A stretch of 64,000 nt of DNA from Eledone cirrhosa (lineage: Eukaryota), in assembly GCA_964016885.1 (NCBI GenBank), contig CAXHJY010001027.1, forward strand, positions 31,118 to 95,117. Direction: 5' to 3'. The position numbers and the translations under genes are program-made. Of the stretch, positions 17,163 to 60,607 are shown piece by piece (the stretch's first letter is position 1; each line of letters starts with the position of its first letter). Under the pieces are notes generated by a model. The model was not told where the DNA came from. It searched no databases and worked only from the letters and a program-made list of their open reading frames with translations.

Positions 17163-17499
17163 AATTGGTGTGGGATGCTTAAAGTGTCCATATGCGGTAG
17201 GCCGTATGAGCACTCAATGCCCTCGTAGGGAAGAGTATATCACAGAAAAAAGAGAATCAATGTTGCGATGAAAGGAATTTATTGGACATGTTACAAATGT
17301 TTCTTGGGTGACCAGCTCGAGGCACGATCGATGGGGTGATCACCACATCGATCGTGCCTCGAGCTGGTCACCACATCGATCGTGTCTCGAGCTGGTCACC
17401 ACATCGATCGTGTCTCGAGCTGGTCACCCAAGAAACATTTGTAATATGTCCAATAAATTCCTTTCATCGCAACATTGATTCTCTTTTTTCTGTGATATA
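17163..17499 (-). mobile_element. Palindromic micro-element, family F, with internal 28-bp triplication
   Basis: Arms span 17236-17499, with tail 17163-17235; (TA)n flanks. Distant relatives at ~2992-3090 (-) and ~15070-15165 (+) share GAAACAT(A/T)TGTAA. Confidence 0.85.
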
Positions 17500-19074
17500 T
17501 ATATATATATATTTATATATAGTGCCTTCATTTCATATTATATATCCCATATTTTTTGTCTTTATTTCATATTATATTTCTTATATATATATATTTTCTT
17601 ATATTTGACTTTTTCCTTCTTCCCGTATCAGACTGTCAACTAAAAGCACAATAAGTCTCTCACATTTCCTTCACATTTTGTTGTTGTTGTTGTTGGTGGT
17701 GGTGCTGGTGTTGGTGGTGCTGTTGTTGTTGTTTTACATCATCCATATTGTTATCGTTTTGTCGTCATTATCGTTATTATTATTGTTATTTTTATTATTA
17801 TTATCGTCATTATTAAAGATAAAATATTAATTAAAAAAATATTATTTATTATCATCATTATTTTACGTAGAGGGTCGGACACCATGCTTTGACGCATGGA
17901 GTTACAGCCCTTGCCATTCTATGTTCAAATCCCACCGAGGTTAACTTTGCCTTTCATCCTTACGGGGTCGATAAAATAAAGTACCAGTAATGCACTGGGT
18001 AATTGCTGGCCTTGTGCCAAAAGTAGAAACAATTATTTTACGTGTGTGTGTATGTATGTGGGTATGTGTATATTTATGTGTGTGTGCATGTGTGTATGTG
18101 TCTGTATGTATATGTATGTGTGTGTATGTGTGTATATTTATGTGTGTATGTATATTTTTCATTTTCAATTTTCTTCTCAAATATTTATGGTGTAGATATT
18201 AAAATAGTCTCTCTCTCTCTCTCTCTCTCGCTCTCTCTCACTCTCTCTCTCTCTCCCACTCTCTCTCTCTCCCACTCTCTCTCTCTCTCGCTCTCTCTCT
18301 CTCTCACTCTGTTTATCTCCTCTCTCTGTCATCTTAAGCACTACACACACACACACACTCACCACACAGCTGACACATATGACACACACTCCACACACTG
18401 TCACCACACACACACTACATCACACCACTCCACATACTCACACACCACACCACATCATACACCACTCCACACAAAACACACCACACCACACACTACACCA
18501 CACACTGTCACCACACACACTCCACACAAAACACACCACACACTCACACACCACACCACACGCTCACACACCACACCACACACTCCAACCACACACCACA
18601 CCACACACTCAAACATATGATACACTCAGAAATTAATATCAAACAAACATGATTTAAAAGAATGTTTACTTTATATACCTCGTTAAATACCTTTTGGATT
18701 AATTGATTATTTTATTTAATTTCATTATTCGTTTATTTATTTGTTTTTAATTGATATGTATTGATTTCAGTCATTAGACTGTGGCCAAGCTACAGCACAA
18801 CCACCATCAAATGTTTTAGTTAATCATATCACCCACAAGTACTTATCTTAATCAAGCACTTATTTCATATAATAATAATAATGAAACTATTGTGTACAGT
18901 GCTCAGGTGCACTACAACTCATCAAAGGTGCATGTATAGTACATAGGATAATGTACAAATGTCAGGAAAGTGAACAGTGTATGAGTCATGATATACATGT
19001 GTGTGTATGGAGGGGGAATATTAGGTGTAGTGTTGGTGAATCTCAGGAAGCATGGAGGTTTTATATATATGTAT

Positions 19075-19470
19075 ATGACTCCCAGGGAGTTGTAGGGGGG
19101 CTGTATTGACATTAGGTGTTTGTAGGGTATTTTAAAACCTGGTGGAGCCCATCTCCTCTCTCTCCAGGTCTGAATACAGCAGATTTCTCCCAGAGAAGGA
19201 TATATATATATATAATTATTATTATCGAGGTTAACTTTGCCTTTCATCCTTACGGGGTCGATAAAATAAAGTACCAGTAATGTACTGGGTAATTGCTGGC
19301 CTTGTGCCAAAAGTAGAAACAATTATATATGTATGTATGGTTCCGTAACTCGTGGGGGAGTCATAGGTGCACAGTATTGACATACGGAGTTTCTAGGGTA
19401 TTGATAAACCTGACGGAGTCCATCTCCCCTCCTGGCTTAAATACAGCGAATTTCTTCTAGAGGAGGATAG
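19075..19470. repeat. Unclassified dispersed repeat (copies ~19075-19200, ~19335-19468, and inverted at ~57165-57300)
   Basis: Shared ..CCAGGTCTGAATACAGCAGATTTCT.. block. Confidence 0.6.
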
Positions 19471-56975: not shown

Positions 56976-59900
56976 AAGACATCAGATAGAATGATTTGCA
57001 GTTTTCATTCCAAGTCTCAGCATTCTGAGATTCTGAATTCAAAATCTGTTGTTAGGGTAAACTTTGCAGTTCATCTTTTCAACGTCAATAAAAAAAAAAG
57101 TACCAGTCTAATACTGGGGTCGATTCTTCCTCTATATTTCTTTCTCATTTCCTCTCTCACCTTCTATCTTTCTCCAGAAGAAATCTGCTGTATTCAGACC
57201 TGGAGAGGGATGGCTCCTTTGGGCCCCGTCAGGCTTAAAATGCCCAAATAAAGTATGTTAATATGGTGCCCCGTACAACTTCATCAGGAATTACAGAGCC
57301 ACACCATAGTTTCTTTTTTATTCTTGTTTACCTCCCTTGATTTTTATCTCTTCCCAAAACCCACTCTTCCCTTTTTTTTCCTATTTATCGATGAAGGACT
57401 GTCATCCAAAACGTCAAGACACTTTTCCAACTACATCAAGCTTTAGACAAATATACCATCATTGTATTGTATATTATTGTTCTTCACAACACATATACAC
57501 ACACACAACACACACACAACACACACATATATACACATACGATCCTGTCACATTATGTCATCTAATTACAGTCAATTCTTTAGTGTGAAGGGGTGGGGCA
57601 GAGGGGTTCCTGTCTATTTAACTTAGGAAACTATAATATAATGTGATATACCTTAACTTTAACTGACCCCTTTCTAATCTACATTTCAGACAATATATAG
57701 ACAAGTTGGTAAAGAGACCCCTATAAATGCCTCCCCCCCCCCCCCCGGGGTCCCTGAGGTCGTGTGAGATTCTGCTAGGAAATGTCAGTTATCTCCCCTT
57801 TATATGTGACACCAGATATATCTTGACTAACCTTTTGTTTATTATAGTAAAGCGAGGCAGGTTTTAGGGTCACAGGGTTTTAAAGGCATTTAAATAACAT
57901 CATCATCATCAGCTATTATTGCAGGTTTGTAAAGCTCTGCCAATATGGCTGGCGCTCTCTCTCTCTCGCTTTCTCTGACTGTCTCTCTCTCTTTCTCTCT
58001 CTCTGTCATTTCTCCTTTTCACACTCTTCTGTTGTGGGGGGGGGGGGGGTGCTGATGGAGTCTTAATGTAAATACATATGTATGTATAATATATATGTAT
58101 GTATATACATATATATATATATACATATATATATATATACATATATATATATATACATATATATATATATATACATATATATATATATATATACATATAT
58201 ATATATATATACACATATATATATACAATATATATATATATATTATATACATATATATATATATATACATATATATATATATATATATACATATATATAT
58301 ATATATATACATATATATACATATAAATATACATATATAGATACATATATATATATATATGAATATATATATATTATACATATATATATGTATATATATA
58401 TACATATATATGTATAATATATGTATATATATATATACATAAATATATACACACTGATAAACAAGTGTCGGTATAATCTATATAGATATATTTCCAGAAA
58501 ATTGTTTGTTTAATTATATTCCAGTTGTGTATATAAAGTCTTTGATGTCATGTATGTATATTCTACATCTTTTTTTATTTGTATTCCCAGGATTTAGCAA
58601 CATAAATCAATGTTGTCTTTTATCTTCTTTCAGACCCTTAAAAGGGTTTCTTCTTGTTTTGTTTTGTTTTCTCCCCCCCCCCCCCCCCCCCCTTGATACT
58701 TTGACTATTTTTCCTCCATTATTTTTTCCTCACAAATAAACAGAATAGAATGGAATCTTGTTACAAGAAGGTGGAATATTATGATTTTGATCATCATCAT
58801 TATCATCACCACCGCCACCGCCACTGTCACCGTCACCATCACCACCACCACCACCATCATCACCATCACCACATCACCACCACCATCATCACCACCATCA
58901 TCACCACCACCGTCACCACCACCACCACACACCGTCACCACCATCACCACCGCCACTGTCACCGTCACCGTCACCACCATCACCACCATCACCACTGTCA
59001 ACATCACCACCACCATCACCACCACCACCATCATCAGCACCATCAGCACCATCACCACCACCACCATCACCACCACCACCATCATCAGCACCATCAGCAC
59101 CATCACCACCACCACCACCACCATCATCAGCACCATCAGCACCATCACCACCACCACCATCATCACCACCATCACTACCACCACCATCATCACCACCATC
59201 ACTACCACCACCATCATCACCACCACCACCATCATCACCACCACCACCACCACCACCACCACATGTTCCAACAGAATGTAATCTCCCAGTGTTTCCAGCA
59301 GTAAATTCCAACCAAACCTGCTTCCCACGAGAACTGTTTTGAGAGATAATCATTGATGTGGGGGGGAGGGGGGTTACTACAGGTGATGAGGGGGGTGGTG
59401 GTGTTGGTGGTGGGGTAGTGTCAGTTAGTGGGGTTACTAGTGAGGGACTGCAAGGGAATGTTTGAGAACCTATTTCAAATTAGGTCTCCACCCTTCATAT
59501 CAAAACTGACTTTCAATATATATATATATATACATTATAGGAAAATGTATGACCCCGACGGCAGAGCTCAAGCCGTTTCGACGGCTTATTTCTGGACCCC
59601 TACATTATATATATGTGTGTGTGTGTGTGTGTGTTTGTTTTATGTACATAAGAGAGGCAGTGTCTCTGTATGTATGTAAGAAAGAATATATGATTGTGTG
59701 TGTGTGTGTGTATGTATGTATGAGTGACTGTGTGTGTGTGTGTGTGTGTGTGTATGTATGAGTGACTGTGTGTGTGTATGTGTGTGTGTGTGTGTGTGTG
59801 TCAATGTGTGTTTGTATAGAAATATTATGAAACTTTATTTATAGTTAAAATCAAACCAGCTGACTCAGCTAAACAGGAAGGGTACCGAGTCTTCTAGGTA

Positions 59901-60248
59901 CAGGTGGTGGTGGTGGTGGTGGTGGTGGTGGTGGTGGTGGTGGTGGTGGTAAAGGTGTGTGGTGGTGGCTGTGGTGGTGGTGGTGGTGGTGGTGTGGTGG
60001 TGGTGGTGGTAGATGTGGTAGTGATGTGTGGTGGTGGTGGTGGTGGATACAGAAAAAGGTATTTAGATAAATCAGTCTCTCTCTCTACATATATATGTAT
60101 ACATATATATATATATATACATACATATATATATACATATATATATATATATACATACATATATATATACATATATATATATATATATATATATATATAT
60201 ATATACTATATATTATATATATACATATATATATATATATACATATAT

Positions 60249-60607
60249 GTAGGAGGTGAGTTTTATTGTAGTACAATAAAGCAATGCAGATATCGGATAA
60301 GAAGCACTCTACAGTTTGTGGGACTGGAGTATGCATAATATAAGATCAAAAGATGGTTAAAGAGTTCCATATATTTTATTATGCGCATTTCAAAAACAAA
60401 CACCATCAAGCAATAATATTTGTGTTTTCATCAGATAAAACAGGAGAACATGATATGAAGGGCTAAAAGTGTTTTTTAGCCTTCATATCATGTTCTCCTG
60501 TTTTATCTGATGAAAACACAAATATTATTGCTTGATGATGTTTGTTTTTGAAATGCGCATAATAAAATATATGGAACTCCTTTAACCATCTTTTGATCTT
60601 ATATTAT
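60249..60607 (-). mobile_element. Palindromic micro-element, family B (long arms)
   Basis: Palindrome 60335-60607 centred near 60471. Tail and outer arm end match 34658-34820. The arm contains TTGATGA...GAAATGCGCATA-ATAAA, a degenerate hammerhead-like motif. Confidence 0.85.

Follow-up and report, generated by a model that had tools for sequence, protein, structure and literature searches.

A duplicated bulged stem as a likely handle for placing the start of reverse transcription in truncated Hydra-clade Penelope-like elements

Penelope-like elements (PLEs) are the sister group of telomerase reverse transcriptase (RT). As published, their insertions carry a 5′-truncated copy in inverted orientation and, optionally, a tail (Craig et al., 2021; PMC8557442). 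For the endonuclease-containing (EN+) PLEs of the Hydra clade, the same account describes an RT with a C-terminal GIY-YIG domain and RWK-type, DKT, CxCX5C, CxxC and CxH motifs, hammerhead ribozymes, (TA)n targets, an inverted 5′-truncated copy and a tail on one side only; the tail is attributed to resolution by the endonuclease, and the main text, in which the word hairpin does not occur, describes no stem at the tail boundaries (PMC8557442). With PAc, the Poseidon protein of the green anole, reverse transcription was shown to start internally at two sites that bound the tail, on AT-rich targets of which both strands are cut and extended; RNA lying 3′ of the start sites is required, and a dimer is predicted (Frangieh et al., 2024; PMC11167929). 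PLEs have an unexplained signature in their tail and inverted pseudo-long terminal repeat (pLTR), internal initiation having been shown for one element, and the parts of the literature covered here yielded no sequence or structure rule for it. Here, we analysed 64,000 nt of DNA from Eledone cirrhosa (hereafter, the window; assembly GCA_964016885.1, contig CAXHJY010001027.1, forward strand, positions 31,118 to 95,117), the end of a contig in a microsatellite-rich genome of 3.0 Gb. In PLEs that we assign to the Hydra clade, truncated copies have two fixed 3′ ends, each about 5–6 nt upstream of a short bulged stem, and the two stems are probably RNA handles that the RT-endonuclease binds to place its start.

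The insertions in question consist of a head-to-head inverted repeat with a one-sided tail, set within (TA)n (a TA flank was also a selection rule of our census), and six families, A to F, are present in the window. Judged by sequence, the fold-back-plus-tail insertions of families A to E are 5′-truncated Hydra-clade PLEs. The tail of family A continues into one open reading frame (ORF) of 723 aa (locus L115) with RT and C-terminal GIY-YIG domains, and the predicted protein has the marks of the clade: an RWK-type motif, DKT and not DKG, CxCX5C, no CCHH, and C-terminal CxxC and CxH (the CxCX5C linker, the absence of CCHH, CxxC and CxH were read from this protein only). Homologous ORFs adjoin the tails of B, C, D and E, which run into or follow them; RW followed by R or I, together with DKT, was found in A, B and E, and RWR in C and D. 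The earlier note on this DNA had called the families unrelated; A to E are instead diverged relatives within the clade, with ORFs 36–56% identical over 80–479 residues (26–56% with four further ORF pieces, nine in all). The pLTRs of different families nevertheless form separate nucleotide clusters and their flanks do not align. Hammerhead ribozymes, predicted from the core CUGANGA...GAAA, lie upstream of the stem in B, D, E and one F copy. In family A, which is highly amplified and has intact ORFs, a hammerhead-like layout with stems I–III and GAAAC, without the CUGANGA core, was seen (33435–33545; L115:170–300). The elements resemble the published Hydra PLEs in protein, predicted ribozymes, target and layout, and differ from them in their tails, about 65–140 nt long as compared with 30–40, and in one family A unit that repeats every 3.54 kb (PMC8557442). 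The clade of family F is assumed from its architecture: no read-through copy leading to a parent ORF was found in 33 distinct loci (three recovered by pattern and 30 by DNA search), which gave one weak upstream match of uncertain linkage. A protein search returned 2016 relatives at E ≤ 1e-30, and the viral contigs searched yielded no relative.

A GIY-YIG fragment at 63371–64000 was tried as the parent of the insertions and rejected, as it belongs to a different clade with its own pLTR. It is a broken thumb and GIY-YIG fragment, on the (+) strand, of a very abundant PLE family (L043–L076; 19,799 first-look candidates), which we read as Neptune/Nematis-type from its CX4CxxC linker. In this family, which serves as a negative control, the pLTR contains a hammerhead core and ends 3′ at two positions separated by about 56 nt; it lacks the RCUC/GAGY stem. 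Locus L076 includes an ORF piece of a further PLE type (L076:611–1528; RVT_1 at E 0.00029, under Pfam's cut-off), followed by a CxxC linker and a GIY-YIG sequence.

All seven hairpins described previously were located in the window. The pattern ACTC-N8-26-GAGTRC matches it 10 times, against 2.48 matches expected and at most 8 in 100 shuffles; eight of the matches lie inside fold-back-plus-tail elements, and the other two are both strands of one hairpin (49788–49814) inside an ORF of the long interspersed nuclear element (LINE) type. The consensus is RCUC, an inner helix, then UN-GAGY, with pair 1 alternating between A-U and G-C; the basal helix is RCTC/GAGY and not a constant ACTC/GAGT, as first proposed. 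Nor do the T before it and the R after it pair, as an outer U-R pair was rejected on 6 of 39 Watson–Crick combinations, against 9.7 under permutation. As claimed, the motif starts close to the end of the arm, with modal offsets of 2–5 nt in most families when homology with the TA target is taken as maximal. A protein-coding origin was ruled out, the spacings fitting no frame and the stems lying upstream of the start codon; the 150 of 350 Rfam matches that were listed were all sub-threshold and to microRNA families, mostly on simple repeats and palindromes.

The position of the motif was assessed in a census of arm ends made without regard to it, in 215 loci (1.42 Mb) made up of the window, 94 content-blind ten-kb stretches and loci from targeted searches. 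The census yielded 147 fold-back elements, of which 104, with a closed tail, fell into 32 clusters, among which are artefacts or members of other clades. A descriptor requiring at least 7 of the 8 letters of RCTC/GAGY, all four pairs, a 2-nt 3′ bulge and at least two inner pairs matched 0–14 nt past the arm end in 15 of the 32 tail clusters; shuffled tails (200 rounds) gave a mean of 0.40 and a maximum of 2. All other 15-nt windows on the sense strand gave 0, save for counts of 5 (−45 to −31) and 2 (−120 to −106), and five further clusters were near misses as judged by eye. The untargeted 940 kb contained 56 strict matches, compared with 15–22 in four shuffles, and the number depended on the size of the bulge: bulges of 0, 1, 3 and 4 nt gave 17, 14, 10 and 28. 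Eight descriptor matches among 119 metagenome loci recovered with a loose pattern lie in coding DNA and look like chance.

Stems of variable length were misaligned by MAFFT, and pairing was analysed in 39 curated stems (40 were listed; a family with a 1-nt bulge was dropped, and the second hairpin of family D left out). At pair 1, 18 of the 39 are G-C and 16 A-U (nominal permutation p 0.0002), at pair 2, 36 are C-G and two U-A (p 0.004), and the first inner pair is U-A and C-G in 18 stems each (p 0.0002). Every listed bulge begins with U, a letter that was, however, built into the rule for choosing partners.

The stem is also found in other animals. Among six published Hydra consensus sequences (supplement S7 of PMC8557442), it was recognised by eye in four: clean in Hydra-2_Amil, from a coral, and in Hydra-2_Ajap, as twin stems in Hydra-1_Ajap, from a sea cucumber, and as a variant in Hydra-1_Crog, from a sea louse; none was evident by eye in the consensus sequences of Hydra-1_Amil and Hydra-1_Obim. 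A further set consisted of 14 Hydra-like loci from contigs filed in bacterial genome bins, 13 of which were examined and eight of which had usable flank; these animal-type retrotransposons (L424–L436) are probably contaminating host DNA. All eight loci with usable flank have the stem, seven by the descriptor and L431 by eye, and L425, L427, L430 and L431 have both stems, against a background of 7 matches per 21,790 nt of ORF and three stray matches further downstream. In L425 and L431, pair 3 has changed on both sides to give GCAC/GTGC, and the bulge is normal; at L425 and L430 the tail ends, by eye and with maximal homology, 4 nt ahead of the second stem. GAGY is often followed by ACUCU, a repeat of the 5′ strand that could permit alternative or intermolecular pairing (L425, L427, L430, L431, Hydra-1_Ajap and Hydra-2_Ajap). 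In five listed Hydra hammerheads, stem III reads ACTC-n-GAGT and so matches the bulged stem's basal helix in its letters, by coincidence or by duplication (supplement S2 of PMC8557442).

The second stem (stem 2) lies just past the end of the tail, outside the inserted DNA, and, like the stem at the arm end (stem 1), between the hammerhead and the start codon. The patterns used to search for it specified only G/C content past the tail end; in B, E and C they returned one dominant continuation each, with GCTC 3–6 nt beyond the tail end and a complete stem ahead of the start codon, and family A is alike. Of the families, 11 have their native leader, and in nine of these stem 2 is canonical (A, B, C, E, L143, L079, L058/L232, L244 and L260); in L086 it has one mismatch. 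Clean TA-ended copies of 10 families stop at most 14 nt, and typically 5–6 nt, 5′ of one of the two stems in 172 of 177 cases, a score that took in only two distal ends of family D; an initial pass had given 103 of 106. Once TA microhomology is allowed for, 14 of the 17 family-ends are compatible with a 5- or 6-nt spacer; each region offers 11–49 other TAT/ATA sites, and from one stem to the other the gap ranges between about 70 and 140 nt. A search of sequencing runs listed no RNA run that carries the sequence. Contigs from sequencing run X1, possibly of the same organism, have loose TA ends at L115:298 and 378, matching the two sites. TA-ended insertions do not contain stem 2, as the copies end 5′ of it.

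The two ends are not chosen independently. Among 110 head-to-head pairs, 106 join a tail-bearing arm to a tail-less one, three distinct pairs (four rows) have two tails and one has none; 24 further pairs, with a read-through or unclassified arm, lie outside the 110. In the random loci and the window, 34 of 35 classified pairs are of the mixed kind (p 1e-9 if the choice were even and made independently at each end). The excess of mixed pairs indicates that the two ends are coupled. The earlier note had proposed a cis-acting structure, recognised by the RT or the GIY-YIG endonuclease of the element, that fixes the pLTR boundary. A conserved structure at the boundary is supported by position, by covariation and by its presence in other animals; its recognition by the element's own protein is what we infer. 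Since stem 2 is never within TA-ended insertions, it must act on the template RNA (or at the donor locus), and therefore an RT acting on RNA is favoured over an endonuclease site in the inserted DNA. In our model, the RT-endonuclease, probably as a dimer, would bind stem 1 and stem 2 of a single read-through transcript, and the bound protein would nick both strands of the (TA)n target. Each 3′-OH would anneal to a short UA-rich patch 5–6 nt 5′ of a stem and be extended away from it, the RT at stem 1 leading and the one at stem 2 following. Both complementary DNAs (cDNAs) would stall early, and a template switch would join them head to head; the one that started at stem 2 would carry the tail and stem 1, and the one that started at stem 1 would form the tail-less inverted arm. 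Tentatively, Hydra-clade PLEs may use programmed twin priming, in which two protomers of the RT-endonuclease are tethered to a single transcript by a duplicated RCUC/UN-GAGY stem and each measures off 5–6 nt to its start on one (TA)n strand; an RNA ruler 3′ of the copied region would explain both the inverted pLTR and the tail, and might, in minimal form, be akin to the RNA anchors that telomerase uses.

Several observations weigh against the reading of the stems as handles for RT. The Neptune/Nematis-type family forms the same arm-plus-tail structure without the motif, and the anole Poseidon protein showed no strand difference in its start site in vitro (PMC11167929). The permutation values overstate independence, as the stems were picked after inspection, two partners were mis-assigned by the script and the families are kin. 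Pairing does not identify the strand (G-U 11, A-C 7; mean pairing probability 0.63 in sense and 0.60 in antisense), and seven of eight single stems fold no better than shuffles (z 0.03 to −1.44), E alone reaching −2.35. There are also irregular families: one has a 1-nt bulge, stem 1 of L086 is degenerate, and stem 2 of family D is a plain 4-bp GCAC/GTGC hairpin without bulge or inner helix, from which six of eight tail-bearing TA-ended copies stop, by eye, 7–9 nt away. Lastly, the asymmetry between the arms considered below is marginal (p 0.052), and deletions at the centre of the palindrome could mimic it.

Four other explanations were considered. A nuclease of the host or the element could cut the transcript 5–6 nt ahead of each stem, ordinary target-primed reverse transcription then starting from the new 3′ ends. 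The same position and covariation data would follow, and a stem 2 outside the inserted DNA is what is expected of a downstream processing signal; two separately cut RNAs alone, however, would not yield 106 mixed pairs in 110, and the Poseidon protein initiates internally on uncut RNA (PMC11167929). Processing is, in our view, unlikely. We think it just as improbable that stem 2 alone sets the start and that the cDNA folds back, the second strand stopping, or the GIY-YIG endonuclease cutting, just before the DNA copy of stem 1. Fold-back would explain the coupling of the ends directly, and fits the lack of a strand preference in the pairing and arms that reach about equally far in 81 of 104 listed pairs (103 distinct); self-priming has been proposed for PLE palindromes (PMC3846280), and recognition by the Penelope endonuclease requires the tail (as cited in PMC11167929). 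One motif at one spacing would, however, have to act in two settings, from behind where a polymerase starts and from in front where one stops. Moreover, fold-back of one tail-bearing cDNA predicts a tail arm that is never shorter, whereas in 16 of the 22 pairs that differ by at least 20 nt it is the tail-less arm that is longer (the tail arm in 6), in L091 by about 960 nt, which fold-back alone could not produce.

A still less probable explanation is that the stems serve another step (ribonucleoprotein assembly, transport, or translational control of the nearby start codon) and that TA microhomology alone sets the ends. Both stems lie in the 5′ leader, the ends show 1–7 nt of TA homology, and the end of family D is shifted to a nearby TA-compatible site, as this would have it; yet only two of the 11–49 TAT/ATA sites in each region are used, at a near-constant distance from stems that are themselves about 70 to 140 nt apart. 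Chance, or a neutral relic of common ancestry, is very improbable: the families are related (26–56% protein identity among the nine ORF pieces) and single stems fold weakly, but the flanking pLTR sequence cannot be aligned between families and yet the pairs survive double changes, shuffles reach at most 2 of 32 clusters, and the motif recurs in other animals.

Within the window, family F is represented by one element on the (−) strand, with a tail at about 17169–17240, an arm at 17241–17306 and an inverted arm at 17429–17494; its stem 1 (17210–17236) has one inner mismatch, and in most copies the inner helix is 6 bp long and the bulge 2 nt, which replaces the parse first given for this family. 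Family D, on the (+) strand, comprises a pLTR piece (21289–21404; hammerhead core 21289–21312, stem 1 21355–21376) and a fold-back with tail (21843–22028) made up of a fold-back at 21843–21961, a hammerhead core at 21901–21924, stem 1 at 21967–21987 and a tail ending at about 22028. Family C, to which at best a stretched version of the motif had been ascribed, is a full member with a long inner part: on the (−) strand (28034–28264) stem 1 lies at 28070–28117 and the fold-back at 28120–28264, and on the (+) strand a fold-back with the rare arrangement of a tail on both arms (62619–63077; stem 1 62994–63041) has a piece of another repeat nested in its middle. Three family A insertions, all (−), lie at 33355–33548 (fold-back 33432–33548, stem 1 33401–33426), 60641–60833 (stem 1 60687–60712) and 63136–63329; the stem reported for all three stands in the first two, and in the third GAAT replaces GAGT (63182–63207), breaking one pair. 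Family B fold-backs with tails, also (−), occupy 34658–34824 (stem 1 34713–34739) and 60249–60607 (hammerhead core 60387–60434, stem 1 60304–60330). The family E insertion (35456–35925, (+)) has its fold-back at 35456–35840, hammerhead cores at 35734–35776 (+) and 35520–35562 (−), stem 1 at 35840–35861 and a tail ending at about 35925.

The window also contains minisatellites with units of 30 nt and 28 nt (16727–17033, 17340–17428 and about 54500–56180), and the middle of the family F fold-back is taken up by the 28-nt array. A frame of 691 aa with LINE-type RT motifs, which we take to be L1/Tx1-like, is open at 48825–50900 (−) and contains the chance pattern match at 49788–49814. Another repeat family bears a hammerhead and ends in (TA)n (23599–23623 and 34464–34488, (+); 28691–28715, (−)); no bulged stem was seen in it.

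A short, covarying and duplicated stem at a fixed distance from both ends would be, for one clade, the kind of rule for internal initiation that the literature covered here did not yield, and can be tested by an existing assay. It predicts element boundaries for annotation, and would provide a compact, movable handle that sets the start of an RT on an RNA. The stem-loop of stringent LINEs is reportedly single and part of the copied 3′ tail. In UnaL2 and zebrafish LINEs, as here, a conserved 3′ RNA stem-loop lies near the priming site; it is needed for retrotransposition (PMC1636434; PMC4176376) and is recognised by the protein of the element (PMC4176376). Unlike that of stringent LINEs, the stem described here is placed on the 3′ side of the junction, so that synthesis starting at it does not copy it, and it is present twice. 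The epsilon element of hepatitis B virus is likewise a bulged RNA stem-loop that fixes the start of reverse transcription and occurs in two copies on the RNA; there, protein priming is templated inside the bulge (PMC11181118), whereas here the junction, 5–6 nt outside the stem, is made with target DNA. Twin priming by L1 resembles our model in that two RT molecules prime on both target strands with one RNA, producing an inversion, but in L1 the reaction is a variant whose internal site is determined by annealing (PMC2837659); here, twin priming would be the norm, structure would fix the two sites, and the arms overlap in sequence. Poseidon PAc shares two internal starts that bound the tail, cutting and extension of both strands, a need for 3′ RNA and AT-rich targets; it belongs to another clade, its initiation is placed in a single AC-rich stem-loop that is part of the ORF, the text consulted reports neither a conserved nor a duplicated motif, and the letters of its Fig. 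S1 show no RCUC/GAGY stem (PMC11167929). The open-licence literature on PLEs, as far as it was covered, gave no description of the stem or of its register. What appears new here is the stem, with its register, its place 3′ of the copied region and its presence as a pair; it would be of a known kind, that of the RT-bound stems represented by the LINE 3′ stem-loops and the epsilon element of hepatitis B virus, and the elements that carry it are new members of a known clade.

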